NCBI GenBank assembly: GCA_050952625.1
Contig: JBMNLH010000004.1
Location: forward strand, 128,001-192,000
DNA: 64,000 nt
DNA from: Bacillota bacterium
GTDB lineage: Bacteria > Bacillota > Ch66 > Ch109
Reading direction: 5' to 3'
The translations under genes were made by a program, and so were the position numbers. Below, one piece after another: positions 5,858 to 40,136 of the stretch. A model generated the notes under the pieces. It ran no database searches, had not been told where the DNA came from, and saw nothing but the letters and a program-made list of their open reading frames with translations. The number at the start of each line of letters is the position of its first letter. Within the stretch, counting starts at the first letter, position 1.

Positions 5858-6262
5858 TTAAAACGGTATTTCTTCCCCCTGAATATCCACTTCTGATCCA
5901 AGGTCGTCCACTGAAGAACTGCCCTTGTAACCGGCACCCGAATCTTTAGGACTCAGGAATTGGACATTTTGCGCTACTACCCGGGCGACCCGTCTTTTTT
6001 GACCGTCTTGGGTTTCATAAGATTGAATCTCCAAGCGTCCTTCTACAGCGGCCAGCCGGCCCTTGCTCAGATAATTGGCGCACAGCTCGCCTAACTGTCT
6101 CCAGGCCACTATATCGATAAAATCGGTCTCCCGCTCCCCCTGTTTATTAGTGTAGGAACGATCTACCGCTAAAGAAAAGGTCGTGACCGGTATTCCGCTA
6201 GTAGTAAAACGCATCTCGGGATCTCTGGTAAGTCGACCAATCAGGATAACTCGATTCAGCAA
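5858..6262 (-). CDS. ssb: Single-stranded DNA-binding protein
   Basis: MLNRVILIGRLTRDPE start and acidic C-terminal EEIPF tail. Confidence 0.98.
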   Translation of the reverse strand: MLNRVILIGRLTRDPEMRFTTSGIPVTTFSLAVDRSYTNKQGERETDFIDIVAWRQLGELCANYLSKGRLAAVEGRLEIQSYETQDGQKRRVARVVAQNVQFLSPKDSGAGYKGSSSVDDLGSEVDIQGEEIPF

Positions 6263-6306
6263 TCCTGCCGCCCCCTTAAAATATCCTCTTAAATAAATAA
6301 AATAAT

Positions 6307-6536
6307 ATACGACGCTCCCGTCTATCTAAATAGTCGCGTCTCTTTCCTTTTGGACAGTTGCTGCGGTGCTAGAGTTCTACTCTTGTTCAAGCAGTACTTT
6401 CCTGTGTCCTTAGATACGACGCTCCTCTCTATCTGACTAGTCGCGTCTCTTTCCTTTTGGACAGTTGCTGCGGTGCTAGAGTTCTACTCTTGTTCAAGCA
6501 GTACTTTCCTGTGTCCTTAGATACGACGCTCCTCTT
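6307..6536. repeat. 107-bp tandem repeat (about 2.1 copies) between rpsF and ssb
   Basis: atacgacgctcc recurs at 6307, 6414 and 6521, and the units are nearly identical. Confidence 0.95.
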
Positions 6537-6537
6537 C

Positions 6538-6822
6538 CTACCCCTTTTTAGTAATCAGGTATCGGATGACGGTGTCGGTTATTTTAAAGACCCGTTCTAG
6601 TTCCTGTTCTGTTGCCGGCTCGCCGTTGAAGTGCTCCAATACATAGTAGCCTTCTCGGTAATCGTTAATCTCATAAGCCAGCCGACGTTTGCCCCAACGA
6701 TTAATATTGACTACTTCCCCGCCATTGTCAGCAATCAATTGGTCGAACTTTTCAATAACGTCATTAATCGCCTCTTCGTCAAGATCGGGACGAATAATAT
6801 ACATAAGCTCATACGCCCGCAC
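6538..6822 (-). CDS. rpsF: 30S ribosomal protein S6
   Basis: RAYELMYIIRPDL...WGKRRLAYEI. GTG start at 6822 follows AGGAGG. Confidence 0.98.
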   Translation of the reverse strand: MRAYELMYIIRPDLDEEAINDVIEKFDQLIADNGGEVVNINRWGKRRLAYEINDYREGYYVLEHFNGEPATEQELERVFKITDTVIRYLITKKG

Positions 6823-6825
6823 AAT

Positions 6826-6895
6826 CTTCACCTCCTCCCCACGGACTATGGCCCTACCACGAAGATAGAGCAGGGATGGAATTGCGGTCGACTCG
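6826..6895 (-). promoter_or_regulatory. Putative S6:S18 ribosomal-protein leader RNA
   Basis: The rpsF leader reads ...tccctgctctatcttcgtggtagggccatagtccgtggggaggaggtg: pyrimidine/CCC tract, internal hairpin and RBS, as in Firmicute S6:S18 leaders. Confidence 0.55.
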
Positions 6896-7118
6896 TTTAT
6901 TGATTATATCATTTAACAATATAATACACAAGTTGGCAAAACTAATCCTTGTGCTGAAGCAGCAAAAAGTTTAAGTTGTTCTGTCAGTATGCTACTGTTG
7001 TTCGCTATACGATAGATTTCGGGAAGAGACGGATCCGTCTGGCAGGGCTTTACGGCATGTTTCGGCAAACACGAAGGGAAGACATTAACAATGCGGAGTC
7101 TTTTAATTCAAATAAATT

Positions 7119-7145
7119 GGGACAGTGAATCTGTCCCCCTGTCCC
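7119..7145. repeat. Family C REP-like GGGACA/TGTCCC hairpin
   Basis: gggacagtgaatctgtccccctgtccc. Related copies at 24291, 31918, 34289 and 60196. Confidence 0.7.
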
Positions 7146-7146
7146 A

Positions 7147-7365
7147 TTACAGCTTTCCTCTGACCAGCAAATTGTTTAAATCAGCCAGGGGGGCCTCGAC
7201 GACTGAAGTATTATTAAAGAGCGATTTGAGGACTGCCACCCTCTCACCTTTTTCTCTAACTTTAAAGCCAATAATGCAATAATGAATTGCTGCTTGTTCT
7301 GATTTCCGAGATACTAAATCACCAATCTGAAAACGAAGATTGGTTAATTCCCTGACCTTTCCCAC
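7147..7365 (-). CDS. Small hypothetical protein (possibly SH3-like)
   Basis: GTG start after a GGGGTGG RBS. FQIGDLVSRK motif. Confidence 0.6.
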   Translation of the reverse strand: MGKVRELTNLRFQIGDLVSRKSEQAAIHYCIIGFKVREKGERVAVLKSLFNNTSVVEAPLADLNNLLVRGKL

Positions 7366-7420
7366 GGCACACCACCCCTTTATAGGATATGCCGGCAAAG
7401 GGTTAAAGGTGCTGAAGATT

Positions 7421-7633
7421 TCACGGAGAATTCTCTTGATGCCGCACAATCGTCTTAACGCTTTTTTCAAACTTAACTCTAGGTAACATCACTTGGTGAC
7501 CACAGCCGAGACACTTGATCCGGATATCCATCCCGGTCCTGGTTATCTCCCACTCATAACTGCCACAGGGATGAGATTTACGCAAACGTACGACATCACC
7601 CAAGTTAAATCTAGGTATCTGTGAACTGCCCAA
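7421..7633 (-). CDS. DUF951 (YyzM-like) protein
   Basis: LGDVVRLRKSHPCGSYEWEITRTGMDIRIKCLGCGH signature. Confidence 0.9.
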   Translation of the reverse strand: MGSSQIPRFNLGDVVRLRKSHPCGSYEWEITRTGMDIRIKCLGCGHQVMLPRVKFEKSVKTIVRHQENSP

Positions 7634-7681
7634 AGAACTTAACCCTACCCTTCTGTTATCCGTGTTGCAAACCGGAGCTTA

Positions 7682-7765
7682 GTGAACTCATTCAGCTTCG
7701 CCAAACATCAAGGCCCAGATGGAGACTCTAGTCCACCTGAAGTTTTCAGCAAGGGCCCCCCTTAT
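7682..7765. repeat. Family B repeat copy
   Basis: gtgaactcattcagcttcgccaaacatc...cagatggagactctagtccacctga matches 62931-63032. Confidence 0.7.
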
Positions 7766-7816
7766 GCCTCTTATCTCAACTAATGTCTTAGGTCAAAATG
7801 ACTTGCGTCTAATATC

Positions 7817-8785
7817 TCAGGTCTCACGCCCGGGGCTGTTCTGATTTTTTTTGCCGGTTAGAGCGGCTAAGGCCTGATTGGCACTAACCCGGACCAACCA
7901 ATCACGGTCCTTCCGGGCTTCATTAAGGGCTGATAACGCTCCCCACCACTCCAGGCATCCGAGAGCTTGAGCTGCTCTGGCTCGAACCTCTGGGACCGGA
8001 TCCTGCAAGACGTCGACTAATTGAGGTCCGGCTTCGATAACCCTCATTTCTCCCAACGCTTGGACAGCCTTGCTGCGGACCCAGGGAGATTCATCTCTAA
8101 TTCCATTGATCAGGCTCTCAACTGCTCGATTATCCCCGATCTGCCCCAGGATCTCCAAGCAAATCCCCCGCGCCTTTTCTTCCATATGCGGATAAGCATC
8201 CAGCAAGGGTTTCACCGCGTGTGACCCCATTGAGATAAGGACATCAGCCACCCTAGCAGGAGTAACCTCAGTCGGCTCTTCTAGTGCCTTAAGCAAAGGC
8301 TCAATCACTGATGGTTCCTGAATTCGACATAGAGCGGCGGAGGCAGCCCAGCGAACCTCTTCTTCAGGATCACTGAGTAAATCTATAAGCGGCATCACCC
8401 CATTGGGAGATTGTAAAATGCCTAGCATTTCTACGGCCTGCGCTCGTTTCTGATGATTCTGACTGCTGATCTGGTCCAAGGCGAGGTCAACATACCCCAA
8501 ACGCGCCAAGAGATTAACTACTGCGCCCTGACGTTCTCTTGACCATTCAAAGAAATCGCTTTGAATGACCCGCATGACCATGGAGGGTTCGGCTTTTTCT
8601 ATTAAATGGATTTGTTTATAGGAAAGGGCTCCACTCCCACGAGATAAGGCATTGCTTAATCTAGCTATTTCCGCCACCTGTTTGTCTGGAACTGCTCTAG
8701 GGCGCAGTTTGCCGACTAAAAAGATTGACGGTAATAAGGCCAGGACAATACCCGCCAAGGCAGCCACCCACCAAGGTATCTCCAT
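7817..8785 (-). CDS. Membrane-anchored HEAT-repeat protein
   Basis: ATG at 8785 with RBS. N-terminal TM (WWVAALAGIVLALL) and repeated DPEEEVRWAASAAL / DESPWVRSKAVQALG motifs. Confidence 0.85.
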   Translation of the reverse strand: MEIPWWVAALAGIVLALLPSIFLVGKLRPRAVPDKQVAEIARLSNALSRGSGALSYKQIHLIEKAEPSMVMRVIQSDFFEWSRERQGAVVNLLARLGYVDLALDQISSQNHQKRAQAVEMLGILQSPNGVMPLIDLLSDPEEEVRWAASAALCRIQEPSVIEPLLKALEEPTEVTPARVADVLISMGSHAVKPLLDAYPHMEEKARGICLEILGQIGDNRAVESLINGIRDESPWVRSKAVQALGEMRVIEAGPQLVDVLQDPVPEVRARAAQALGCLEWWGALSALNEARKDRDWLVRVSANQALAALTGKKNQNSPGRET

Positions 8786-10695: not shown

Positions 10696-10865
10696 ACGCT
10701 TGTGTTTTAACTCGGTCAGCAGACTAAACTGGGAATGAACTTCGTCGGCTTCGGGCAGGCATCAAACTCGCCTTGCAGGCTCAAACAGTGATGCCTGCTG
10801 ATCCTCAGCTGCCTCAGTTCTCTAATGTAAAACGTCAATCGCTGACCGAGTTAAAACACAAGCGT
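10696..10865. mobile_element. 170-bp MITE-like element (family A) with perfect 25-bp terminal inverted repeats
   Basis: acgcttgtgttttaactcggtcagc ... gctgaccgagttaaaacacaagcgt, with internal hairpin caggcatca...tgatgcctg. Confidence 0.8.
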
Positions 10866-10877
10866 TAGATTTTTTTC

Positions 10878-11006
10878 TGAACTCAGTCAGCAGGCTAGAC
10901 TGGGAACGAAAAAATAATATAAATCGCCAATCGCTGACCTTCGTTAAAACACGGCGCGTTAGAATTTTTTTCTGAACTCGGTCAGCAGGCTAGACTGGTA
11001 ACGAAC
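10878..11006. repeat. Internally deleted family A copies (one full short form plus a partial)
   Basis: Same ends as family A, but the central part is replaced by aaaataat. Confidence 0.8.
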
Positions 11007-11774: not shown

Positions 11775-11910
11775 GCTTGTGTTTTAACTCGGTCAGCAGG
11801 CTAGACAGGGAACGAAAAAATAATGTAAATCGCCAATCGCTGACCTCCGTTAAAACACGGCGCGTTAGAATTTTTCTGAACTCGGCTAGCAGATTAGGCC
11901 GGGAACGAAA
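11775..11910. repeat. Internally deleted family A copies upstream of the cvpA-like gene
   Basis: gcttgtgttttaactcggtcagc...gctgacctccgttaaaacacggcgc followed by a partial second copy. Confidence 0.8.
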
Positions 11911-12044: not shown

Positions 12045-12093
12045 GCGTACAGAAAAAAAGGAAGCCACCTAGACTTCCGTTTTTTCTGTACGC
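12045..12093. terminator. Long hairpin downstream of the KaiC/V4R operon
   Basis: gcgtacagaaaaaa-aggaag-ccacctaga-cttccg-ttttttctgtacgc. Confidence 0.6.
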
Positions 12094-12140: not shown

Positions 12141-13922
12141 TTATTTAATCAAAAGATCGTTCAGGGCAATTTTTTCCCTTAGTTGCCCCATTTCTAATAA
12201 GGCTTCTTGTACCTCGTTCAACTCCGACAAATTCGGTTTGAGGTTAGTATAAATGATTCTTTGCTTATCTTCTAACAAACAGTTACGGGCAATATCTTCC
12301 GCAACATTGAAATACTTGGCCGCAATACTAGCTGCCCATAACCGATCATTCTCAATGATGCTGCCGGCAGTGATGAGTTCGTTTCTTAACTCTCGCACAA
12401 TATCCGGGTGCCGATTATAAAAACCTTGATTGACCACCATGGCACAACACAAATGCTCCGGCCAGATCTCTCGTGAGGAAACCAGGATCCGGCCGACGCC
12501 AGCTCGTTCCACCTGAGAAATAAAGGGCTCTGAACAAAAGAACCCGTCAATCTCCTCATTTTCTAGATTCAAAATCATATTAGGCGAGGGGACCGAAACG
12601 GTTCGGTAGGTTAGCCCCGAATTTTTCATCCACTTGTGCAACAGCAAACCTTCAGTGCCCAGTTTACTGGGAATAGCAATCAACAGAGGACTCTGATTTT
12701 CCCGCAAAAGAACCTGCCGGTCAGTAAAGTTTGGCTCGACCACCAAACAACCGCCATTACGGTGTCCGAAGCAAACCAGCTTAAGCAGCACACCCTGCTG
12801 GCGATAATTCAACACCGCTGGAAGCATCATAAAACCGGCGTCAACCTGACCCTCCACCACAGCCTGGTTAAGCTCGCGCCAGTAGATATAAGGTGTAAGC
12901 TCAACTTTTAAGCGGGGATTTTTGCAAAAAAGCAATTCCTGCGCCACCGGCAGGGTTAGGTGGTCCATACTTGGTATGTAGCCTATGCGGATGGAAACGG
13001 TTTTTAATTGTTTAAAATCAATTGGATTATTAAGGTGCGCCGGGGAAACCACAAAACGACAGGCACTATCCCCTTTGGCCACACAATCGGTTTCTTCACA
13101 ATTCACTTCCGCCTGGCACAAACGAGAAACTAAGCCGGCCAAAAAGCCTCGGGTAAACTCATCCATTGCCTGGAGGGAACTGGCCTCCGTTCCCTGAAGC
13201 AACTCGTTCCCCTTAAAGTAAACCTCTTGATTTTCTTCATCTAGTTTTTCTAATTCAATTTTACCTAGTCCGCCAGCGGCAAATTGTTCGAGACAGTCCT
13301 GAAGATCCCCGGTTAACCCCCGGGCAAAACGCCGGCCGGTTTTCTCCACAGAACCTTCCTGCAACCGCTCCATCTGCTCAGTAAAAATCCGCAGCAGTCT
13401 CAGAACCTGGGACTTGGTAAACAGTTGCGCTCGCGGTTTAGAGGTGGGAAACAATTCGCAGGCACATTTAACCGCTGGATTAGTCTCAATTATGGTGTAA
13501 TCGAATTCTTGACCTAAACACTCTCGAATAATCCCGACGAAAGTGAGGACGCGGATGCAAATCGCCCGTTTTTTAGCTCGCAATTGACAGGTAATCGCAT
13601 AGGGGCAGTTAGGACCCACGACCATGCGAATTCGCCCGGCTGGCAACCGGGAGAAAGAGACATTAGCCTCCTCCAGCAAACCCTCTTTTTCTAAAAGGTC
13701 CCGGTACCAGCGCATTATATCCAATGGTTTTCGAATCTCCCCACTGTTGGCTTCCAACCGGTTGATTAATTGATTGGCCGCCATCTCAGAAGCCATGGCC
13801 AGTACAGAGTGGGGTTCTCCTAAATCGTCACCAATACATCCCAGAGCGTTTACCCAGTAGTTCATTCTAGCATTTTCGGATTTTAGCTGATGCAGCAACC
13901 TTTTCGTTAAGTCCTCAGTCAC
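12141..13922 (-). CDS. V4R-like + V4R + NrtA/CmpA (NMT1-like) ligand-binding fusion protein, no signal peptide
   Basis: CPY..C..C..C V4R/MetOD-like domain, GLGKI...GFLAG...EETDCVAKGDSACRF V4R domain, and IRIGYIPSMDH...GHRNG...EPF...SREIWPEHLCC solute-binding fold. Confidence 0.75.
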   Translation of the reverse strand: MTEDLTKRLLHQLKSENARMNYWVNALGCIGDDLGEPHSVLAMASEMAANQLINRLEANSGEIRKPLDIMRWYRDLLEKEGLLEEANVSFSRLPAGRIRMVVGPNCPYAITCQLRAKKRAICIRVLTFVGIIRECLGQEFDYTIIETNPAVKCACELFPTSKPRAQLFTKSQVLRLLRIFTEQMERLQEGSVEKTGRRFARGLTGDLQDCLEQFAAGGLGKIELEKLDEENQEVYFKGNELLQGTEASSLQAMDEFTRGFLAGLVSRLCQAEVNCEETDCVAKGDSACRFVVSPAHLNNPIDFKQLKTVSIRIGYIPSMDHLTLPVAQELLFCKNPRLKVELTPYIYWRELNQAVVEGQVDAGFMMLPAVLNYRQQGVLLKLVCFGHRNGGCLVVEPNFTDRQVLLRENQSPLLIAIPSKLGTEGLLLHKWMKNSGLTYRTVSVPSPNMILNLENEEIDGFFCSEPFISQVERAGVGRILVSSREIWPEHLCCAMVVNQGFYNRHPDIVRELRNELITAGSIIENDRLWAASIAAKYFNVAEDIARNCLLEDKQRIIYTNLKPNLSELNEVQEALLEMGQLREKIALNDLLIK

Positions 13923-13933
13923 AGGCTCACTTC

Positions 13934-14653
13934 CTATCTAAAGTAGAAATCCTTATCCACAACTAAGCCTACCCCCCGTTTAATACAACACGGGAACGGA
14001 CGAGGATCATAGCCGGCGGTCCGCAACTTATGCAGCCGTAAATTACGTTGCGGAACTCCTCCCCTTTCATCCGGGAAGAATAGGTCAAGACAAACATCAT
14101 AAGCATTAGTTAAGGCGTACATCCCCGCTTCTTCCAGGGTCCCCTTTAGATACATATCCATAATTACCACATCGGGTTCGCGCAGGAGCCGATTCTTATC
14201 CTGAACCAAGGCTAAAAACTCTTTGGTTGAATAAACAGCCGATATAGAGGTTAAGGAATCTAGAACGACCCGGCAAGGCTTTTTCATTTGCCTGACGACC
14301 CGGGTAATAACATACAGAAATTCCTGCGCATCGCCTCGGTCTTTGATACAGACCACGCGTGGATCGGAAGATTCATAGGTATCTATAAAGATTAGCCGGC
14401 CCTCTCTCTCGTAGGGATCAGAGACAAAACCAAAAAAATTTAAATCTTCCCGCACCCGAGCGGCTGGCTCGTCGCAGGCGACATACACCGCCGATTCCCC
14501 TTGCCTGAGGCCTTGTACCATAAACTGGAATCCAAGCGTGCTCTTGCCCGCTCCGGACTCCCCTCGTACCTGCCAGATAGTGCCAAATGGAATCTTACCC
14601 CGAACAATTCCCTCAAGAGGAGAAAAACAAACCCCTTGATTGAGTTCACCCAT
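13934..14653 (-). CDS. Single-domain KaiC/RAD55-like RecA-superfamily ATPase
   Basis: GESGAGKST Walker A, YVACDEP, RVVLDSLT Walker B, HKLR motif. Confidence 0.88.
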   Translation of the reverse strand: MGELNQGVCFSPLEGIVRGKIPFGTIWQVRGESGAGKSTLGFQFMVQGLRQGESAVYVACDEPAARVREDLNFFGFVSDPYEREGRLIFIDTYESSDPRVVCIKDRGDAQEFLYVITRVVRQMKKPCRVVLDSLTSISAVYSTKEFLALVQDKNRLLREPDVVIMDMYLKGTLEEAGMYALTNAYDVCLDLFFPDERGGVPQRNLRLHKLRTAGYDPRPFPCCIKRGVGLVVDKDFYFR

Positions 14654-14681
14654 AAGAATCTACCCCTTTTCCTCTTTTCCC

Positions 14682-16070
14682 TTACTTGACGTAAAAGATA
14701 CGGATACCTTCTTCGGTAATTTCCATCCGGTATCGGCCGGTTACATGCTTTTGATTCCTAAGCTTATAAACCTCAATGTACCGCTTCCGGGAGCCCTGAA
14801 TCGACTCGGTCCCCAGAATAATCACACCATCACAAAGTGATTCCTCTACGCCAAAACGACCAATCTGATTTGATCCATACAGAGAGGGACTAATCAAAAA
14901 TGAGTTGCAACCATGATACTTAATAATCCGGGTTAACCGGGCAATCTTTTCCGAAACCAGACGCAAGTCATGACTCACCGTATGCATTAGCGTCGGCAAG
15001 GTATCGACCACCACGATTGAGGGAGAATGCGTCTGCATTAATTCATTAATCCGAAAAAGGTACTCTTCGATATCAACTCGGGCAAAATCTTCGTAGCTAA
15101 CAATTAACTGCCCTTTGGCAGTAAGTTCCCGAAAATTCCAGCCATAGCTCTCTGTCCGCTCAAAAATATGCTCGGGTGACTCTTCATGGAGAAATAAGAC
15201 AGCTTTGCGTCTAGAATCCTGCAGAACATTATTAATCGTTTGTAAAGATAAAGTAGTCTTCCCTACCCCGGCTGGACCGCAGAGCAAAACATTGCTGCCC
15301 AAGGGCATACCGTCTCCCAATAGGTCATCCAGTCCTTCGATCCCGGTTTTTAAAACCCCTTGAAAGAGTTGGAATTCAGGCAAGACCGGGGCCTGCCTCG
15401 GAAAGACCTGCAAGCCATCCGACGCAAAACGAAAGCCATGTTTCCCCGGCAGATGCTCATGGCCTCTGCTTTTGAGTACTTCAATCAAGCGGCGCCGGCC
15501 TTCGGTCGGGGTTTCCTGATAAGAAAGAGTAATAATTGTGTCCACCAAATACTCTTCGAAGCCGGTCGCTCCTTTGACAGACATTTCCTTTGTAAAAATG
15601 ACGGTTAAGCCCATTCGCTTCAAAGAATTGATCATACTAAACATTAATTCACGGAGGCTGGTTTCTTCAACGGTTATCCTCTGAAAGTGGGTGAAACTAT
15701 CGATCAGAATTCTTTTGATTCCCAGGCGTTCAATCAACTGGTAGATCGGCCCGCTAGGCTGCAATAACTGATCACTAATAACCTGCGGCGAGGTACAAAT
15801 TACCCGCAGCCGGTTTTCCCGCTCCATCGCTCGTAGATCCCAACCAAACCGGGCCGCATCGCGGTAGATCTGTTCCGGAAATTGCTCAAATGTAAGAATC
15901 ATTCCGGGTTCGCCCGAAAGAATCCCTTCGACAATGGTCTGCACTCCCAGGGTTGTCTTGCCGCAACCAGGGGAACCCTCGATCAGGATTGAGCTACCGG
16001 CGATAAAACCACCACAGAGAATCCTATCCAATCCTTTAATCCCTGTTGAAATTTGCAGCATAAACGTCAC
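14682..16070 (-). CDS. Double-domain KaiC-like ATPase
   Basis: Two TGI.GLD..L.GG-type domains with Walker A GSPGCGKTT and GPAGVGKTT, and KSRG / KLRN motifs. Confidence 0.92.
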   Translation of the reverse strand: MTFMLQISTGIKGLDRILCGGFIAGSSILIEGSPGCGKTTLGVQTIVEGILSGEPGMILTFEQFPEQIYRDAARFGWDLRAMERENRLRVICTSPQVISDQLLQPSGPIYQLIERLGIKRILIDSFTHFQRITVEETSLRELMFSMINSLKRMGLTVIFTKEMSVKGATGFEEYLVDTIITLSYQETPTEGRRRLIEVLKSRGHEHLPGKHGFRFASDGLQVFPRQAPVLPEFQLFQGVLKTGIEGLDDLLGDGMPLGSNVLLCGPAGVGKTTLSLQTINNVLQDSRRKAVLFLHEESPEHIFERTESYGWNFRELTAKGQLIVSYEDFARVDIEEYLFRINELMQTHSPSIVVVDTLPTLMHTVSHDLRLVSEKIARLTRIIKYHGCNSFLISPSLYGSNQIGRFGVEESLCDGVIILGTESIQGSRKRYIEVYKLRNQKHVTGRYRMEITEEGIRIFYVK

Positions 16071-16402
16071 CCCCTTTGGCCCCTATCCACTTCTTTGGAA
16101 TACTCTGGCATGGCGGTTAGCTGCGCCACCAATTCATCCATAATCTCCAAAACCGATTCCTCAGGAGAATAGGTATAAATCGCTAACAAGTCATTCCCCA
16201 TCTTCTTAACTATGCCGGTTTTATTAAGTTCTTCAAGAGCTGGCTCAACTTCATACTGATTAATTCCTACCCACCGGGCCAACCCTTCGGTAGTATCAAA
16301 CGCGCCGGGATTTCGATAAAAGAAAACAACCAGACTGCTTTGTACTACAGAACTACCTATAGAGTCAAGAAGTTGTTGAACCCTATCCTCAATAAGGTCC
16401 AT
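16067..16402 (-). CDS. Small winged-HTH-like protein, translationally coupled to the kaiC-like gene
   Basis: DTTEGLARWVG...VEPALEELNKTGIVKK..IY wHTH pattern. Its stop overlaps the next start (GTGA). Confidence 0.7.
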   Translation of the reverse strand: MDLIEDRVQQLLDSIGSSVVQSSLVVFFYRNPGAFDTTEGLARWVGINQYEVEPALEELNKTGIVKKMGNDLLAIYTYSPEESVLEIMDELVAQLTAMPEYSKEVDRGQRG

Positions 16403-16434
16403 GCATCAATCCCTCCTGCTCCCAGATAGAAGGT

Positions 16435-16469
16435 ATTCGACACAAGCCATAAAACTCCTTCTTTCGACA
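16435..16469 (-). promoter_or_regulatory. Putative sigma-H promoter with two Spo0A-box matches
   Basis: GAAGGAG-N-GTCGAAT on the minus strand (AGGA-17 nt-GAAT). TTCGACA at 16436-16442 and 16463-16469. Confidence 0.55.
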
Positions 16470-16545
16470 AACTCTGACACTAAAAAAGTTTGGCTTATTA
16501 TTATCATCGCTTAGCCTTGGTCAAAACATAAGGCTAGAGTTAATT

Positions 16546-18891
16546 TCATTTATCATAGCTGTTTGTGATATGAGGGTCCCCGGTGGTTTTGGAGTTCGTG
16601 GCTTGCTGTATCTGCTGTACCTTATTTCTTAGCTGCTGAATCAGTCGGTTTAGACCCTCAAGTCTTCCCTGCTTAATAGCTTGATTAATCTCAGCCCCTA
16701 TTTGGGAAATATCTTTTAAACCATATAAACCAGCTGAACCTTTAATATCGTGACTAACACTGAGTACGGTTTCTAGGTCACCCCCGGTCAGGGCTTGATC
16801 TATTTGCTTAACCATATCGTCCAATGAAGTTAAAAACTCCGGTAAAAGTGCTTGAATCACTCGATCCGATCCGGCAACTTTAGCCTCCTTTGGCTGCTGC
16901 CCGGCTTGAACTCGCCTCAAGGCCTCCAATAATTGCCCTCGGGTAAAGGGCTTGGCCAAGTAATCAGTACACCCGGCAGCCAGACACTTTTCCGCATCCC
17001 CTTTCATGGCGTGAGCAGTCAAGGCAATAATCGGCAGGTTTTGCCAGCGGGATGATTGGCGAATTCTTTTAGTCGTCTCGTAACCATCCAAAATGGGCAT
17101 CTGCATATCCATTAGCAACAAATCAAACTCTTCCTGCTCCAGGATCTGCAGACACTGCTGGCCATTCTCGGCTACTCGGACCGAATGCCCCTCAGCCTGC
17201 AGTATGTAAGTTATTAGACGCCGGTTAGCCTCGTTATCCTCAGTTACCAGGATGGAACAGAAAGCTGACCCGCCGGCCGAAGCAGCCGGCACCGGTCGGG
17301 AACGTGGCTGGTTCCGCTTGACTACTTTAGACAATGGCTGCTCTAGCGGTACACAGAAATGAAAAGTGGAGCCCCGTCCTTCTTCACTATCAACCCAGAT
17401 GCGTCCACCCATCAATTCAATTAGTTGTCGACAAATGGCTAGACCAAGGCCGGTCCCACCGTACTTGCGTGCCGGTGATCCATCCACCTGAGTAAAGGCT
17501 TGAAAAATATTATCCCGAGCATGATGAGGAATACCGATCCCAGTATCTCTAACCGAAATGTGTAATGGGAATTGAGAAGAAGGCAGCCTTTTGTTGCCTC
17601 GACTGGCCCGAACCTCAATCTCCCCTCGTTCGGTAAATTTAACGGCATTGCCCAGTAGATTAGTCAGCACCTGACTAATTCGCCCAACATCACCGCTAAG
17701 GATCGGTGGAACTTGCGAACTGATAAAGGTTTTGAGTACGATAGTGGTATCTTCCAGGTGCGGTTGAATGGCTGCGGTACACTCATTTATCAGGGTGCTA
17801 ACTTCAAAATTGGCATTTTGTAGTTCAATTCGATCCGCTTCAATTTTGGATAGATCCAGGATATTATCAACTAAATGAGAAAGTTGTTGGCCACAACGTT
17901 GAATTGTCGTTACAAACTCCATTAAACGGGGGGATAGATTTTCCCGAGACAGGAGTTCGGCAAATCCCAGGATCCCTCCCAGCGGTGTCCGAATCTCGTG
18001 ACTCATATTGGCTAGAAACTCAGTTTTGGCCCGATTAGCAGCCTCCGCCTGGCGGTGAGATTCAATTAAATGGGCAATATCTGCGACTATGCCAACGGCT
18101 CCTTTGATGTCGCCATTTTCATCCCGGATCGAGGTAACTGACAACCAAACAGGCCGTGCGGTTTTGGCTTTATTCATGGTTTCTACTTGACCGCGCCAAG
18201 TTCCCCCTGCCTTAATCGTCGTCAAAATTTCCCGCAACCGAGCTAACTCGGTTAAGGGAAACATTAAGGAAATCTGCTGGCCGACCGCCTCTTCTTGGCT
18301 CCAACCGTATAGTTTTTCAGCTCCCCTATTCCAGGACCGAATACGCCCATCCAGATCAAAAACAATGATGCAATCGTTCACGTTGGCCAGTAGATTTGCC
18401 TGAAAGCGTATTTCCGCTTCCGCCCGGCGTTGGTCAGAAACATCTGTATAAATACCAAATGTCCCCTGAACCCGGCCTTGATTATCGATAAAAGGAGCCG
18501 CACCTACTATCACCGGCACTTTTCGCCCGGAACGAGTGACCAAACAAGTTTCATAGGTACTCCGTTCCCCGTGAAGTTGGCGCCAAAATTTGTCGAGCGA
18601 GACAGAAACTTGAGACCTGTCAATAATATCTAAATAAGATCGGCCAAGGATTTCTTCTTCTGAATACTCAAGCATTCGACACAAGGCCTGGTTAACCTGG
18701 GTTATTTTCATTAAGGGATCCAGGCAAACTAATCCTTCCGTCATGGTCTCAATCAGAGTCCGATATCGGCTTTCGGAGGCAGTCAACTGGGCCACGCTGT
18801 CCTTAAGGAAGGTGGATAACTCGGACCTATCAAGCTCATCTAAGGCATCCACCATCTTCAAAAACTTTTCGACGTGATTAGTCTGACTCAT
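16546..18891 (-). CDS. Soluble PAS-PAS-HisKA-HATPase-REC-Hpt hybrid histidine kinase
   Basis: [45 protein letters not shown] and SHDIKGSAG motifs. No TM segment. Confidence 0.93.
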
Positions 18892-19146: not shown

Positions 19147-19368
19147 CTATTCATGCGGTTCAATTGTATACCCATCTGATTCATAGTGGTCATCTAAATC
19201 CGCTAGCGCAATGCGGCATTGTCTGGTACTACCATCCACTAAAAGCAAGGCCTGGGTCAATTCGGTTAAGGCTTCGCCATTACGGACAACACCCATTGAA
19301 TTCCGGATTTCTTGGGCCGAACCGTATAGATGACTGATGGCTGACTGAACTGCCTCTTTTTCGTTCAC
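19147..19368 (-). CDS. Small hypothetical protein
   Basis: Strong AGGAGGTG RBS, downstream hairpin at 19059-19090, upstream sigma-F-like promoter. Confidence 0.7.
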   Translation of the reverse strand: MNEKEAVQSAISHLYGSAQEIRNSMGVVRNGEALTELTQALLLVDGSTRQCRIALADLDDHYESDGYTIEPHE

Positions 19369-19419: not shown

Positions 19420-20560
19420 TCAGAACAAGAAAACCCAATTGCGCCGTGTTTTAACGCAGGTCAGCGATTGGCGATTTACATCAAAGAACTGAGGCGGCTG
19501 AGGAGCAGCAGGCATCACTGTTTGGGCCCAAAGGGCGAGTTTGATGCCTGCCCGAAGCCGACGAAGTTCGTTCCCAGTCTAGCTTGCTGACCGAAATTAA
19601 AACACAAGCATCAGAACATAAAAACCAATTGCGCCGTGTTTTAACGTAGGTCAGCGATTGGCGTCTTACATCAGAGAACTGAGGCGGCTGAGGAGCAGCA
19701 GGCATCACTGTTTGAGCCTGAAAGGCGAGTTTGATGCCTGCCCGAAGCCGACGAAGTTCGTTCCCAGTCTAGCTTGCTGACCGAAATTAAAACACAAGCA
19801 TCAGAACATAAAAACCAATTGCGCCGTGTTTTAACGTAGGTCAGCGATTGGCGTCTTACATCAGAGAACTGAGGCGGCTGAGGAGCAGCAGGCATCACTG
19901 TTTGAGCCTGAAAGGCGAGTTTGATGCCTGCCCGAAGCCGACGAAGTTCGTTCCCAGTCTAGCTTGCTGACCGAAGTTAAAACACAAGCATCAGAACATA
20001 AAAACCAATTGCGCCGTGTTTTAACGTAGGTCAGCGATTGGCGTCTTACATCAGAGAACTGAGGCGGCTGAGGAGCAGCAGGCATCACTGTTTGAGCCTG
20101 AAAGGCGAGTTTGATGCCTGCCCGAAGCCGACGAAGTTCGTTCCCAGTCTAGCTTGCTGACCGAAATTAAAACACAAGCATCAGAACATAAAAACCAATT
20201 GCGCCGTGTTTTAACGTAGGTCAGCGATTGGCGTCTTACATCAGAGAACTGAGGCGGCTGAGGAGCAGCAGGCATCACTGTTTGAGCCTGAAAGGCGAGT
20301 TTGATGCCTGCCCGAAGCCGACGAAGTTCGTTCCCAGTCTAGCTTGCTGACCGAAGTTAAAACACAAGCATCAGAACATAAAAACCAATTGCGCCGTGTT
20401 TTAACGTAGGTCAGCGATTGGCGTCTTACATCAGAGAACTGAGGCGGCTGAGGAGCAGCAGGCATCACTGTTTGAGCCTGAAAGGCGAGTTTGATGCCTG
20501 CCCGAAGCCGACGAAGTTCGTTCCCAGTCTAGCTTGCTGACCGAAGTTAAAACACAAGCA
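19420..20560. repeat. Tandem array of six 190-bp units (170-bp family A element + constant 20-bp linker)
   Basis: gcgccgtgttttaac starts at 19441, 19631, 19821, 20011, 20201 and 20391. Linker tcagaacataaaaaccaatt. Confidence 0.97.
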
Positions 20561-25994: not shown

Positions 25995-26092
25995 TGGCGG
26001 GAGTGTGTGGGAATCGAACCCACCCACGACAGGATCGCTGCCGCGCGACTGGATTTGAAGTCCAGGAGAGCCACCAGGCCCAAGCCACCCCC
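25995..26092 (-). tRNA. selC: tRNA-Sec (UCA)
   Basis: GGGGGTGG...CTGGACT-TCA-AATCCAG, long variable arm, GGTTCGATTCC and encoded CCA. Anticodon at 26056-26058. Confidence 0.95.
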
Positions 26093-27002: not shown

Positions 27003-27719
27003 TTAGCCCCGACCGCCGCCGAGATACGCTTCTTTGACCTCCTCGCTTTGGGCCAGCTCCTGGGCCGGCCCTTCTAAAACAATTCTGCCGGTCTCCAGGA
27101 CGTAGGCATAGTCAGCAATCGACAGGGCCATATGGGCATTCTGTTCCACTAAGAGAATAGTGGTTCCGGTGCGGTTGATTTCCTGGATAATCTCAAAAAT
27201 TTCCCGGACCAGCAGGGGAGCTAAGCCCATCGACGGTTCGTCCAGCAGCATCAACCGCGGCCGAGCCATTAAAGCTCGTCCAATCGCCAGCATCTGCTGT
27301 TCTCCTCCACTCAGAGTACCGGCCATTTGGCTGCGCCGCTCCTGAAGCCGGGGAAACCGCGTAAAGACCTGATTTAGGTCTTCTTTGATTCCGGCTCGGT
27401 CTTTGCGCAGATAGGCACCTAGTTCTAAATTCTCCATGACCGACATATTCGGAAACACCCGGCGGCCTTCCGGAACTTGAACTACACCCAAGGCCACTAT
27501 GTCTTGGGCTGGTTTACCGTTGATGTTAACATCATGAAACACAATACTCCCGGATTTAGGTTTTAACAGACCGGAGATAGTCCGGAGCGTCGTGCTTTTA
27601 CCGGCCCCATTCGCGCCAATGAGGGTGACAATCTTGCCGGCACCGACTTCCAGGCTTAGATCTTTTAGAGCATGAATTGCGCCATAATAAACGTTGATAT
27701 TAGAAATCTTGAGCAGCAT
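27003..27719 (-). CDS. livF: Branched-chain amino acid ABC transporter ATPase
   Basis: GANGAGKST, VPEGRRVF, LSGGEQQMLAIGRAL, DEPSMGLAP. Confidence 0.95.
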   Translation of the reverse strand: MLLKISNINVYYGAIHALKDLSLEVGAGKIVTLIGANGAGKSTTLRTISGLLKPKSGSIVFHDVNINGKPAQDIVALGVVQVPEGRRVFPNMSVMENLELGAYLRKDRAGIKEDLNQVFTRFPRLQERRSQMAGTLSGGEQQMLAIGRALMARPRLMLLDEPSMGLAPLLVREIFEIIQEINRTGTTILLVEQNAHMALSIADYAYVLETGRIVLEGPAQELAQSEEVKEAYLGGGRG

Positions 27720-27722
27720 CGC

Positions 27723-28499
27723 TCATAATACCTCCTCGCCCAGGTAAGCCTCAATCACCCGGGGGTTATGTTTGATTCCTTCGGGATCTCCCTGAGCGAT
27801 CAACATCCCATAATCAAGAACATAAATCCGTTCACAGACTCCCATAACTAGAGACATATCATGTTCGATTAAAAAAATGGTTAAGGAAAACTCCTCTCTG
27901 ACCCAGCGGATTAGCTGCATCAAATCCTGGGTCTCCTGGGGATTCATGCCGGCAGCCGGTTCATCCAGCAACAGAAGCTGCGGCTTAGTAGCCAAGGCCC
28001 GGGCAATTTCCAAACGGCGTTGTTCCCCATACGGCAGATTCCGGGCTAACTCATCTCTTTTGTTATCCAACTTAAAAATTTTTAATACTTCTAACGCCTG
28101 TCGGGTGATCTTTTCCTCGCCGCGCTTAAAGATACCCAGTCTGAAAATAGCACTACTCACTCCATAGGTAGCATGACGGTGAAGAGCAATCCGGACATTG
28201 TCCAGAACAGACAAATTGGCAAAAAGACGAATATTTTGGAAGGTCCGCGCGATTCCCTGGCGGGTGATCTGATAAGGTTTACAGCCTACCAGACTGCTGC
28301 CTTGAAACTCAATCTCTCCCCGGCTAGGCAAGAATACGCCGGTTAAGAGATTAAACACGGTGGTTTTCCCGGCCCCGTTAGGACCAATCAAGCCTACTAA
28401 TTCTCCCGCTTCGATCTCGAGGCTCAGATTATTGACCGCGTTTAACCCGCCAAAAGATTTAGATAGTTTTCTGATGCTGAGGAAGCTTATCCTGATCAC
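27723..28499 (-). CDS. livG: Branched-chain amino acid ABC transporter ATPase
   Basis: GPNGAGKTT, ARTFQN, LPYGEQRRLEIARALA, EAYLG. Confidence 0.95.
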   Translation of the reverse strand: MIRISFLSIRKLSKSFGGLNAVNNLSLEIEAGELVGLIGPNGAGKTTVFNLLTGVFLPSRGEIEFQGSSLVGCKPYQITRQGIARTFQNIRLFANLSVLDNVRIALHRHATYGVSSAIFRLGIFKRGEEKITRQALEVLKIFKLDNKRDELARNLPYGEQRRLEIARALATKPQLLLLDEPAAGMNPQETQDLMQLIRWVREEFSLTIFLIEHDMSLVMGVCERIYVLDYGMLIAQGDPEGIKHNPRVIEAYLGEEVL

Positions 28500-29511
28500 C
28501 CCGCTTTCTTCGGAAGAGATCGGTCACCTCCCGGGTACCGAGCAGCCCCTGAGGTCGGATCAGCATGACAATTATTAAAATCAAAGAAAAAATGATGACC
28601 CTGAGCTCCACAAATTGACGCAACATTTCGGTTACCAGCGTAACGAAGACGGCGGCGGTAATCGAACCGGTAATACTTCCCAGGCCCCCTAATACTACCA
28701 TCACTAGAATATCAATTGACCGGAGAAAGTCAAAAATTTGCGGGCTGATATAAACAAATAAGTGCGCAAACAGGGCACCGGATAATCCCGCAAAAAAGGC
28801 CCCAATTGAAAAGGCCAGCACCTTGTACCGGGTAGTATTGATTCCCATTGCCTCCGCGGCGATCTCGTCTTCGCGGACCGAGATAAAGGCCCGGCCATGG
28901 GTGGAATTGATTAAGTTCGCGATAATTAGGACCGCGAAAACCATTAAGACAAACGCCCAGGTAAAGTTGGTATACTTTGGCACAGCATAGCCCCGGGCCC
29001 CTCCCACCACGTCCAGGTTGATCAAGATAATTCGAATGATTTCACCAAGGCCAAGAGTGGCAATCGCCAGATAATCCCCCCGCAATCTTAAGGTAGGTAA
29101 GCCAACTAAAAAACCCAATATGGCGGCAGCTACCGCCCCAGCTAGAATCACCAAAAGAAACAAGCCAATCCGAACTAAAAAATCCAGCCACTCTATCCCG
29201 GGCAAGGACATAGGATTAACGACATTCCGGCTTAAAAAGGCACTTACGTACGCTCCTACGGCCATAAAGCCGGCATGGCCTAAAGAAAACTGACCAGTAA
29301 AGCCGTTGATTAAGTTTAAGCTGACCGCCAGCACAATGTTGATGCAAACGAGGGACAGAATCTGCATATGGTAGGGATTTAAGTTCCCGGCTCCCTCCAG
29401 ACCTAATACCGTTAGGTAAAAGGCTAAGGCCAAACCTAAGAAGAGCCAGCGTAAACCGCGGGGAGTTTTCCCCGGATCAGAACCCGAATTGTTTTTAGTT
29501 ATCTCAGCCAT
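28459..29511 (-). CDS. livM: Branched-chain amino acid ABC permease
   Basis: GQFSLGHAGF and LRLRGDYLAIATLG motifs. Confidence 0.93.
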   Translation of the reverse strand: MAEITKNNSGSDPGKTPRGLRWLFLGLALAFYLTVLGLEGAGNLNPYHMQILSLVCINIVLAVSLNLINGFTGQFSLGHAGFMAVGAYVSAFLSRNVVNPMSLPGIEWLDFLVRIGLFLLVILAGAVAAAILGFLVGLPTLRLRGDYLAIATLGLGEIIRIILINLDVVGGARGYAVPKYTNFTWAFVLMVFAVLIIANLINSTHGRAFISVREDEIAAEAMGINTTRYKVLAFSIGAFFAGLSGALFAHLFVYISPQIFDFLRSIDILVMVVLGGLGSITGSITAAVFVTLVTEMLRQFVELRVIIFSLILIIVMLIRPQGLLGTREVTDLFRRKRGDQDKLPQHQKTI

Positions 29512-29605
29512 CCTTTGTCACCAACTTTCCAACACGCAGAGGCCATTGCCTTGAACCAACATTGCCTTGAACCAAAACAAAAGCCTAAATATATTTTACC
29601 ACTCG

Positions 29606-30493
29606 CTACACTTTCTCGCTTTGGTTTTTGCCTAAAATACCAGTTGGCTTGATCAGCAGAATAATAATCAAGATAGCAAAAGCAATAGCATCGCGATAAT
29701 CCGAGGACCAGAAGCCGACTACCAGTAACTCAGCCACTCCCATGACTAATCCGCCCAGCATTGCCCCGGGAATTATCCCGATTCCTCCCAAGACCGCCGC
29801 GACAAAGGCTTTAAGCCCGGGCAGGATGCCCATATAAGGGTCAATGCGCGGATAAGCAATGCCGACCAAAATACCGGCGGCCGCAGCCAAGGCGGAACCA
29901 ATCGCGAAAGTTACGGAAATTGTGCGATCCACATTAATGCCCATTAACCGGGCCGCATCCCGATCTTGAGAAACCGCCCGCATGGCCTTGCCGGTCCGAG
30001 TGCGGTAGATAATAAATTGCAGGATAATAATCAAAGCCAGGGATACCCCAAAAATCAGCAATTGCACGTTGCTGACCTGCACCCCGCCTAGATCAAACAC
30101 CTTAATGGCGAAAAGCTCCGGGAAGGGCCGTGGATCCGGGCCAACCCGCCAGCGCATCATATTTTCTAAAAATAACGAAACCCCGATCGCCGTAATTAAC
30201 GCGGTAATCCGGGGGGAATCGCGCAGTGGCCGATAAGCTACCTTTTCGATAATTACCCCTAGGATAGAACAGACCGCCATTGCCACCAACAGGGTTGGCA
30301 GGAAGGGCAGTCCATAGTTAGCCACCGCAAAGAAACCCACAAACGCTCCCACCATGTAGATGTCTCCATGGGCAAAGTTAATCAGTTGGACAATTCCGTA
30401 AACCATGGTGTAGCCGATGGCGATTAGCGCATAGATGCTGCCCAGGGCCAGTCCATTAACCAATTGTTGAATAAATTCCAAAATATTCCTCAC
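29606..30493 (-). CDS. livH: Branched-chain amino acid ABC permease
   Basis: GSIYALIAIGYTMVYG...INFAHG motif. Confidence 0.95.
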   Translation of the reverse strand: MRNILEFIQQLVNGLALGSIYALIAIGYTMVYGIVQLINFAHGDIYMVGAFVGFFAVANYGLPFLPTLLVAMAVCSILGVIIEKVAYRPLRDSPRITALITAIGVSLFLENMMRWRVGPDPRPFPELFAIKVFDLGGVQVSNVQLLIFGVSLALIIILQFIIYRTRTGKAMRAVSQDRDAARLMGINVDRTISVTFAIGSALAAAAGILVGIAYPRIDPYMGILPGLKAFVAAVLGGIGIIPGAMLGGLVMGVAELLVVGFWSSDYRDAIAFAILIIILLIKPTGILGKNQSEKV

Positions 30494-30518
30494 CCCTGTC
30501 AGCCATAATTGGCAACAA

Positions 30519-30546
30519 GAGTAGGGGAACCGAGTTCCCCTACTCC
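30519..30546. terminator. Intercistronic hairpin between livK and livH
   Basis: gagtaggggaac-cga-gttcccctactc perfect stem. Confidence 0.65.
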
Positions 30547-30650
30547 GTAACCTTAGACGTCTCTTATTTGTTTAAGGCTATCGTGTTTAAGGCTAGCGTA
30601 TTAAATTGCGGGGTTTGAAAATATCTTAATCCGTTATTGGTTAGACATGG

Positions 30651-34266: not shown

Positions 34267-34288
34267 TTAATTACTGCTCCTTCCCATA

Positions 34289-34463
34289 GGACAGGGGGAC
34301 AGGTTCGCTGTCCCGGTTTAGCTTACCGACTATTCAACGCGCGTGTATATAAATAATAGCATCCGCAGTCAGCCATGGCGGGCTCAAACAGTGATGCCGG
34401 CTGATCCTCAGTCGCTTCTGTTCTCTGATGTAAATCGCCAATCGCTAAACTTCTAAAAACGCG
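34289..34463. repeat. Family C hairpin (34289-34315) and partial family A copy (about 34380-34463) in the selA-selB spacer
   Basis: ggacagggggacaggttcgctgtcccg, and ggctcaaacagtgatgcc...aaatcgccaatcgct. Confidence 0.75.
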
Positions 34464-34492
34464 AGGTTTCTTCATGATGTTACTGTAAATGG

Positions 34493-39962: not shown

Positions 39963-40017
39963 CTAAAATGATACATTTTAATAACAGTCTCGTAAATTAT
40001 CAAAATCAAAATGCTGA

Positions 40018-40107
40018 ATAATGGGCAAGGCATTCGAAAGAATGCTCACGCAAAGCTACGGGTCTAAGGTATTAGTCTCCGCTAATACTATGATAGCCGG
40101 GTTGCCA
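40018..40107 (+). ncRNA. c-di-GMP-I (GEMM) riboswitch
   Basis: GGGCAA-gcattc-GAAA-gaatgc-ACGCAAAGCTACGGGTCTAA...ATGATAGCCGGGTTGCC matches the GEMM consensus. Confidence 0.9.
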
Positions 40108-40136
40108 TGAAGTCAGATCGGTTTCATGAAATCCAA

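Follow-up and report, generated by a model that had tools for sequence, protein, structure and literature searches.

A KaiC cassette with a candidate winged-helix adaptor in an uncultured member of the Bacillota

A five-gene cassette around two KaiC ATPases

We analysed a 64,000-nucleotide stretch of DNA from a Bacillota bacterium (GenBank assembly GCA_050952625.1, contig JBMNLH010000004.1, positions 128,001 to 192,000; hereafter the window) and focused on a candidate KaiC-centred signalling cassette encoded within it. An original prediction, made from the letters of this DNA, had described five co-oriented genes, and all five open reading frames (ORFs) were recovered on the minus strand with the same coordinates and spacings (Table 1). 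In gene order, a hybrid histidine kinase is followed after 143 nucleotides (nt) by a winged helix-turn-helix (wHTH) protein, then by a double-domain KaiC (KaiC2, spacing -4 nt), a single-domain KaiC (KaiC1, 28 nt) and a sensor fusion (11 nt). None of the five proteins contains a membrane-like segment, the highest Kyte-Doolittle mean over 19 residues being 1.37. The prediction had further named a soluble PAS-PAS hybrid kinase, a wHTH protein, one double-domain and one single-domain KaiC and a solute-binding fusion. These assignments were borne out by the matches given below, that of the wHTH protein as a fold.

Table 1. Coordinates of the cassette genes, the parts of the sensor fusion and nearby features in the window.
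Feature	Position	Strand	Description
Hybrid histidine kinase gene	16546-18891	minus	781 amino acids
wHTH gene	16067-16402	minus	111 amino acids, stop overlapping the KaiC2 start by 4 nt
KaiC2 gene (double-domain KaiC)	14682-16070	minus	462 amino acids
KaiC1 gene (single-domain KaiC)	13934-14653	minus	239 amino acids
Sensor fusion gene	12141-13922	minus	593 amino acids
Cys-rich domain, sensor residues 1-168	13419-13922	minus	C106, C112, C122 and C153 invariant
V4R domain, sensor residues 169-300	13023-13418	minus	C275, E276, E277, C280 and C288 invariant
NMT1/SsuA-type solute-binding-like domain, sensor residues 301-593	12141-13022	minus	without signal peptide
Promoter-like site	16497-16524	minus	in the kinase-wHTH gap, consensus scan, 10/12 matches, weak
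Terminator-like hairpin and T run	12060-12078	minus	63 nt past the last gene, consensus scan, weak
73-amino-acid acidic ORF	19147-19368	minus	between repeat array and kinase gene, own ribosome-binding site

Pfam family PF06745 matched KaiC2 in two stretches (319 bits) and KaiC1 in one (94 bits). Both domains of KaiC2, CI and CII, align with solved KaiCs of the Protein Data Bank (PDB) at E values of 2.9e-61 to 1e-50, and each has an intact Walker A motif, the first starting at residue 32 and the second at residue 265. The E-E pair of KaiC is retained in CII but reads E-Q in CI, a feature conserved in the cassette orthologs. In KaiC1, Walker A, the acidic pair D61-E62 and the Walker B residue Asp132 are invariant in seven of seven orthologs. 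KaiC1 and the CII domain of KaiC2 have retained their catalytic features (both Walker motifs and the acidic residues), and both ATPases, like the parts of the kinase described below, look functional. In a tree of KaiC domains, KaiC1 forms a separate, long-diverged lineage apart from both halves of KaiC2, and the KaiC2 domains of the families f1 and f31 cluster (clade support 96/91 for CII and 87/90 for CI); the tree has long-branch problems (CII of genome G188) and was used for these two points only. No further KaiC was found in the genome, the leftover PF06745 signals being weaker and located in larger ORFs, one of them the DnaB gene at the start of the window and the others unexamined. In two other genomes the KaiC2 of the cassette reads as two ORFs (168 and 288 amino acids in G006, locus L030, positions 6982-8370; 262 and 144 amino acids in G193, locus L050, positions 6040-7204), which could reflect a frameshift, an assembly error or a real split.

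The positions corresponding to S431 and T432 of KaiC are Glu410-Ser411 in KaiC2. Of this pair only the Ser is conserved, being shared by all five cassette orthologs. The KaiC2 sequence stops at residue 462, right after CII, whereas solved KaiCs run on for about 40-60 residues, and this C-terminal tail of KaiC is the target of KaiA. Such a protein might serve as a timer independent of KaiA and KaiB, an hourglass or ageing clock in which KaiC2, by autophosphorylating slowly, would register elapsed time or energy charge, with entrainment as the sole task of the sensor. The full CI-CII likeness to solved KaiCs and the conserved Ser at the T432 position, next to a Glu at the S431 position, would suit a timer, and in Pseudomonas the phosphorylation of a KaiB-less KaiC tracks culture age, according to the part of that study accessible to us (10.1101/2022.01.26.477890). 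Here, however, no more than one of the two phosphosites of the clock could be phosphorylated, the tail is absent and the host is an uncultured bacterium of dark anaerobic digesters. In addition, the close, conserved association with a dedicated ligand-type sensor speaks for the sensing of a state more than for time-keeping, and we consider a timer improbable.

The kinase carries the Pfam domains PAS-PAS-HisKA-HATPase_c-Response_reg-Hpt, and thus REC and Hpt domains in addition to the predicted architecture. The H-box His motif (residue 297), the Asp motif of REC (591) and the His motif of Hpt (713) are present, and the ortholog in G004, a genome of the same family, shares 56% identity. No separate REC gene was detected in or beside the cassette, neither in the window nor in genome G120, REC being found solely inside the hybrid kinase.

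The fifth protein joins three parts (Table 1). For the V4R part, Pfam PF02830 matched residues 255-294 (40.1 bits, cut-off 31), residues ~161-300 matched the profile of MopR (E 3.9e-5), and a model of moderate confidence (predicted local distance difference test, pLDDT, 66) aligned with MJ1460 (2oso) over 126 residues (model residues 163-296; VIA Z 13.3, root-mean-square deviation 2.8). Residues 1-168 gave no PDB sequence match and an hhalign probability of 0.2% against the second half, and all rows of the fold search fell on residues 161-300. The order of secondary-structure elements in residues 1-168 resembles V4R, with weak hints from the ESM Atlas. Of the V4R-V4R arrangement that had been predicted, the second half therefore stands, and the first, conserved and rich in Cys, found no support as a V4R at the level of sequence. 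A sequence-level internal repeat in the sensor was likewise rejected on the hhalign probability between the halves. MopR, PoxR and DmpR, as well as MJ1460, share the fold of sensor residues ~161-300 (Z 11.3-13.3), and the pattern C...EE..C.......C of the sensor resembles the zinc site of these phenol sensors. Unlike in MopR, PoxR and DmpR, the V4R domain of the cassette is not fused to an AAA+ transcription activator; a second Cys-rich domain precedes it and, in the window's family, a solute-binding-type domain follows it.

This last domain matched Pfam NMT1_2 (PF13379) at residues 306-526 (115 bits, cut-off 24.7), the uncharacterised ABC binding protein 3un6 in the PDB (E 4.2e-19) and the cytoplasmic regulatory domains of NrtC and CmpC (E 1e-8 to 3.5e-8). 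NrtC and CmpC provide a precedent for a solute-binding-protein fold that acts inside the cell as a sensor, although the domain of the cassette is closer to 3un6 and no transporter is encoded at the cassette. There is no N-terminal export signal: the domain forms the C-terminal part of a soluble fusion, without adjacent transporter genes. It shares the fold of solute-binding proteins but appears to be no transport component. A transporter reading was rejected on the lack of permease or ATPase genes nearby; the nearest ABC genes, at 27003-31826, belong to a branched-chain amino-acid type system. The fusion occurs only in the window's own family and is missing from the sensors of the other two. 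In a word-indexed search of 5.8 billion proteins, which is insensitive here, it was found in 5 clusters; such a search with the profile of the sensor gave 12.

The winged-helix protein and its predicted docking on KaiC2

The wHTH protein matched no Pfam or NCBIfam family, HTH models included. Its AF2 model, computed from an 80-row alignment (pLDDT 86.7, predicted TM-score 0.76), comprises helix-helix-strand-helix-helix-wing-helix. The best fold matches with Foldseek were 3r0a and MarR/ArsR proteins, and a profile search of the PDB returned 3r0a at E 1.9e-5. With a profile of three orthologs, we collected 457 representatives of the family at E <= 1e-3 among 1.84 billion proteins. The word-indexed search, insensitive here too, gave 1 cluster. 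The nearest ESM Atlas clusters are all bacterial, with Chloroflexota most frequent.

The most conserved columns of the family are F27, F28, N31, P32, D36, T37, G40 and A42, with N31 kept in 75 of 80 rows and P32 and D36 in 71 each. These residues precede the HTH and lie on the surface formed by helix 2 and strand 1, off the recognition helix. DNA binding by the wHTH protein looks unlikely, since the recognition helix is net negative in 58 of the 80 family members and the window's protein is acidic (net charge -10).

Many relatives are parts of larger proteins. We scanned 18 long proteins from the best 150 family matches for fused domains and found the wHTH ahead of a histidine-kinase core in 11 of them (HATPase_c in 10 of these 11, PAS and HisKA in most). 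One protein each carries it fused to GAF-GGDEF, fused to GAF-PAS-cyclase and inside REC-x-GAF-SpoIIE (PP2C phosphatase); three of the remaining long proteins are multi-HTH and one is without a family. The motif was retained in the fused copies: all 14 have Asn or His at position 31 and Asp or Glu at position 36, and Pro32 is present in 11.

The modelling of a KaiC with its partners, which the original prediction had suggested as a check, was carried out for the wHTH protein and KaiC2. Three runs scored 0.70, 0.67 and 0.67 (median 0.67), whereas the best of 3 in the controls was 0.00. The mark for a passing score was reached by 116 of 157 solved complexes and by 2 of 215 mismatched pairs in the calibration, which is rough here as own alignments were used. 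Contacts agreed to 100% between the runs, and the pLDDT of the partner was 81. On the wHTH protein, the predicted contacts comprise residues 30-37, 39-40, 43-44, 68, 75 and 77; on the CI domain of KaiC2, they comprise residues 64-66, 83, 89-94, 97-98 and 108-109. The surface conserved throughout the wHTH family is therefore the predicted interface. On the other side, the KaiC2 segment ~89-95 is conserved in seven KaiC2 proteins encoded beside a member of the wHTH family and deleted in two paralogs (G002 and G006:C54) that adjoin other small proteins, and these small proteins do not align with the wHTH family. The prediction thus supports binding of the wHTH protein to the CI domain of KaiC2 through its conserved motif. 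We know of no solved complex of a KaiC with a wHTH protein, so that a high score from a memorised structure seems unlikely. The predicted CI segment aligns with a strand and loop which we take to be the docking site of KaiB and SasA on cyanobacterial KaiC.

The interface also bears on another reading, in which the module's output would be the wHTH protein itself, acting as a common MarR/ArsR-like transcription factor. KaiC and the sensor would then control its DNA binding, and the kinase would be a parallel input or an unrelated neighbour. Such a factor would explain the match to MarR/ArsR DNA-binding proteins, the names of the nearest ESM Atlas clusters ('MarR family' or 'transcriptional regulator') and the two cassette loci that lack a kinase, and 27 of the 80 family members are net positive. 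Against this, no Pfam HTH model was matched, the acidic charges of the recognition helix and of the window's protein are those given above, and the conserved residues fall on the helix 2-strand 1 surface predicted to contact KaiC2. Moreover, DNA binding would make little sense in fusions to kinases, a GGDEF protein, a cyclase or a phosphatase. With neither an HTH family profile nor a basic DNA-reading helix, the protein fits the MarR/ArsR transcription factors by its fold alone, and we consider this role unlikely.

Conservation of the cassette across genomes

Absence of the cassette from other genomes had been named in the original prediction as evidence that would speak against it. We found the cassette in three families and in two gene orders. 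Of the 401 genomes sampled from the phylum, 13 have a full-length sensor according to a profile search; three of them belong to family f1, one to f2 and nine to f31. Within f31 the sensor is present in 19 of 30 genomes and eight of nine genera. At the 13 loci, KaiC1 always adjoins the sensor and KaiC2 does so in 12 cases. Of the ten loci of f2 and f31, nine have a wHTH gene next in line and eight have a PAS-HisKA-HATPase kinase. The usual order there is KaiC2-KaiC1-sensor-wHTH-kinase, with genes overlapping or nearly touching, and a kinase of ~350 amino acids with PAS-HisKA-HATPase domains fills the role of the hybrid kinase. In one of the other genomes (G120), assembled as one contig, the cassette lies between argS and cobalamin-related genes.

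In the window's family the order is kinase-wHTH-KaiC2-KaiC1-sensor (G000, G001 and G004). The five genes, together with downstream CvpA and HEAT genes, recur in G001 of the same genus and in G004 of the same family, and the cassette proteins share 55-80% identity with those of G004. Judged by gene content and order, the window's family carries what appears to be a rearranged and elaborated version of the cassette, with the wHTH and kinase genes in front, a kinase that has REC and Hpt domains and a fused sensor. This conservation, together with the lack of membrane-like segments, upholds the predicted self-contained cytoplasmic module.

The wHTH gene points to the same neighbourhood. At 15 of the 17 wHTH loci with E <= 1e-15 in the phylum sample, a KaiC, sensor or kinase match lies within 1.5 kb. 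Thirteen weaker matches (E 1e-10 to 4e-6) were left out of this count as other HTH families; where listed, their ORFs have ~180-205 amino acids, and 11 of these loci (L073-L085) have no KaiC, sensor or kinase neighbour. Minimal pairs of wHTH and KaiC2 without the other genes were found in three genomes (G023, G188 and G156), and the locus in G023 carries a REC gene.

A profile search of genome contigs (alignment A2) returned only two close relatives, both titled Syntrophomonadaceae metagenome-assembled genomes. A metagenome scan with the KaiC1 alignment gave, among the matches listed, at least three loci, none of these with the cassette. At one metagenome locus (L101), a KaiC2-like gene lies beside a HisKA-HATPase-REC kinase.

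The conservation pattern also weighs on a third explanation, namely that the signalling neighbourhood is incidental and the KaiC-like ATPases serve DNA repair, recombination, defence or the regulation of a transporter. KaiC is indeed a member of the RecA/RadA/DnaB superfamily, whose models gave weak matches, as did mad8 in PADLOC at the level of the P-loop; the NMT1-type domain, in turn, resembles ABC binding proteins and the regulatory domains of NrtC and CmpC. Yet the PADLOC matches span only 55-130 residues around the P-loop, and none of the genes within or adjoining the cassette encodes a nuclease, helicase, permease or ABC ATPase. In the other two families the cassette has no solute-binding domain. 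Its five components stay together in all three families and in both gene orders. We regard such a function as very improbable. Membership in a defence system was rejected, as PADLOC assigned none.

A second type of KaiC2 locus exists (L033, G002:C113; L034, G006:C54). In these loci, a small protein unrelated to the wHTH family (103 or 138 amino acids) precedes KaiC2, which is followed by a PAS-HisKA kinase in G002 and by a PocR-GGDEF protein in G006; the G006:C54 locus is flanked by HD-GYP and GGDEF proteins. In the taxonomic order to which the window belongs, modules leading from KaiC to an output seem to use adaptors of several kinds.

Proposed signal flow, related systems and surroundings

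We read the cassette, with moderate confidence, as a KaiB-less, KaiC-centred cytoplasmic sensory module in which the wHTH protein serves as a docking adaptor between KaiC2 and the kinase. Read in this manner, the cassette operates as an output pathway leading from KaiC to a kinase. KaiC2 would form the hub and hold the state, probably as a hexamer with ATPase and autokinase activity, and KaiC1 would be a dedicated partner ATPase. As input, the Cys-rich/V4R sensor would report a small ligand, a redox state or a metal state to the ATPases, and the cytoplasmic solute-binding-type domain would extend this input in the window's family. Genomics and the controlled model suggest that the wHTH protein is not primarily a DNA-binding regulator; its N-P...D-T surface would bind the CI domain of KaiC2, and the protein would link the state of KaiC to the PAS histidine kinase. 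From the hybrid kinase, phosphate may then travel via the REC and Hpt domains of the same protein to a response regulator whose gene lies elsewhere. In cyanobacteria, KaiB and the KaiB-like N-terminal domain of SasA bind KaiC. The wHTH protein would fill the role of both with an unrelated fold.

Several points weigh against the adaptor module. The whole reading is drawn from genomics and modelling. The complex was modelled with a KaiC2 monomer instead of a hexamer and with a 9-row alignment, and for the tool used, a passing score supports binding without showing it. The equivalence of the CI region to the KaiB/SasA loop depends on the alignment with KaiCs of the PDB and on the presumed position of that loop. 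The wHTH is a classic DNA-binding fold, and the net positive family members mentioned above fit that use. No response regulator is linked to the cassette, two loci of one genus (G193 and G278) have no kinase beside it, and in the window the kinase gene is set apart by its 143-nt gap, which holds a promoter-like site. The contigs from RNA libraries described below are shallow, could stem in part from DNA and do not allow a joint transcript to be demonstrated.

The cassette shares with the cyanobacterial KaiABC system a double-domain CI-CII KaiC with Walker A in both halves, a docking site that is here predicted on CI and, as proposed, an output through a histidine kinase, as with SasA and CikA. 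The occurrence of the wHTH N-terminal on kinases also parallels the relation of KaiB to the N-terminal domain of SasA. In contrast, the partner is winged-helix here and thioredoxin-like there, KaiC2 has E-S for S-T, E-Q for E-E in CI and no C-terminal tail, and the cassette adds a single-domain KaiC and a V4R sensor. The original prediction had noted that kaiA and kaiB are missing from the window and had pointed to a kaiB-like partner elsewhere in the genome as a possible counter-indication. Their absence extends to the whole genome (95.9% complete), in which neither KaiB (PF07689) nor KaiA (PF07688) gave a match. KaiB was above the Pfam cut-off in none of five further cassette-bearing genomes, whereas the Synechococcus elongatus control was detected. 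Lacking KaiA, KaiB, the S-T pair and the tail, the cassette does not, by its gene and motif content, belong to the cyanobacterial clock.

Among described systems, the KaiB-less operons of Pseudomonas that combine KaiC with a kinase come closest, to judge from the accessible part of the report (10.1101/2022.01.26.477890). There, KaiB-less KaiC genes adjoin histidine kinases, and the neighbours of kaiC comprise kinases, single-domain response regulators, an EPS sortase and CsrA/RsmA (10.1101/2022.01.26.477890). Both kinds have a double-domain KaiC without KaiB beside a (hybrid) kinase, and in both KaiC would modulate a two-component pathway. In our data, kaiC lies beside a histidine or hybrid kinase in the window, in G001 and G004, and at eight of the ten loci of the other families. 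In contrast to the Pseudomonas type, the cassette has no separate response regulator, and phylum and habitat differ; neither a wHTH protein nor a second KaiC nor a V4R sensor is among the neighbours listed in the part of that paper accessible to us. A KaiB-less KaiC beside a kinase is therefore already described; what sets the cassette apart from the Pseudomonas type, as far as that part presents it, is its additional KaiC, the Cys-rich/V4R sensor and the proposed wHTH adaptor.

Archaeal KaiC hubs likewise place KaiC-family ATPases, single-domain ones included, in sensory neighbourhoods with two-component parts, as far as the part of PMC5847659 accessible to us describes them. The label 'archaeal-style' in the original prediction nevertheless finds no support in our comparisons. 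Both KaiCs stay below the cut-offs of the archaeal models TIGR03877, TIGR03880 and TIGR03881 (KaiC2: 210.5 versus 249.45, 177.8 versus 307.25 and 136.2 versus 247.8; KaiC1: 68.8 versus 307.25, 51.8 versus 247.8 and 45.3 versus 249.45), and the nearest clusters of the wHTH protein are bacterial. The best NCBIfam score of KaiC2 was obtained with the bacterial KaiC model PRK09302 (278 bits, under the cut-off of 408), and a further KaiC model gave 209 against a cut-off of 546. For the cassette proteins NCBIfam was in line with the Pfam assignments, and none of the five reached an equivalog cut-off. The prediction had also not recognised the cassette as characterised. In the literature on KaiC with V4R, 4-vinyl reductase, winged helix or Firmicutes, we found no description of it, although supplements and further papers might hold one; KaiC is mentioned only briefly in PMC6393860 and PMC5852551.

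A bolder extension of the adaptor reading, which we offer tentatively, is that the wHTH protein founds an unnamed family of KaiC-docking domains, an independently arisen analogue of KaiB and of the N-terminal domain of SasA, which occurs free or N-terminal on histidine kinases, diguanylate cyclases, nucleotide cyclases and PP2C phosphatases and wires KaiC into many outputs in bacteria. KaiC homologues are common outside cyanobacteria, and their inputs and outputs in the absence of KaiA and KaiB are largely unexplained. If the extension were true, KaiC hub signalling with dedicated adaptors would be widespread in bacteria rather than peculiar to cyanobacteria or archaea. The cassette offers a compact and complete candidate pathway, from a ligand or redox sensor through two KaiC ATPases and an adaptor to a kinase. 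Its main value lies in the candidate adaptor family and in a testable interface that can be mutated, namely the N31-T37 surface of the wHTH protein against KaiC2 residues 89-98. Should the adaptor hold up, it would give a handle for finding KaiC-dependent pathways in many bacteria and would reveal convergent solutions for reading the state of the KaiC ring.

Metatranscriptome contigs from four runs of four studies contain pieces of all five genes at low depth, which is consistent with expression of the cassette genes. No contig bridged two cassette genes under a 31-letter rule, and most of the wHTH gene and the junctions were uncovered. In the region of the cassette, promoter-like sites are no more frequent than in shuffled sequences (7 versus a mean of 10.7), and the same holds for terminator-like sites. 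At least half of the stretch is held by each of 14 DNA runs from bioreactor, biogas and anaerobic-digester metagenomes, three of which may be the source sample.

The window represents an origin-proximal region of the chromosome, with dnaA, parAB, rsmG, mnmGE, yidC, dnaB, ssb and rplI. Our Pfam scan comprised 47 of its ORFs, which covers all except seven of the 54 ORFs of at least 100 amino acids; as originally predicted, no archaellum or gas-vesicle gene was among them. The 73-amino-acid ORF upstream of the kinase gene shares 60% identity with an ORF at the same position in G004, matched no Pfam or PADLOC family and is followed, after its stop, by a hairpin and T run; it may be an accessory gene of the cassette version in the window's family.

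Just upstream of the cassette, at 19420-20560, a 190-bp unit is present in six tandem copies at 98% identity. Further copies lie at about 10698-10957, 11775-11863, 1087-1257 and 34381-34463, so that the cassette is flanked on both sides. The repeat is dispersed, and its family counts 64 matches in the genome, frequently grouped as short tandem arrays. Each unit carries inverted repeats at its ends and forms a long hairpin (z -3.35 versus shuffles), without a match to any Rfam family; it looks like an element of the miniature inverted-repeat transposable element (MITE) or repetitive extragenic palindromic (REP) kind. Elsewhere in the window, a tRNA-Sec gene (25999-26092, minus strand) lies near selB and selA (32332-35965, minus strand), that is, parts for selenocysteine decoding are present. 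Finally, a cyclic di-GMP-I riboswitch (40014-40109, plus strand) precedes a gene (40310-41443, plus strand) whose product has a methyl-accepting chemotaxis signalling domain.

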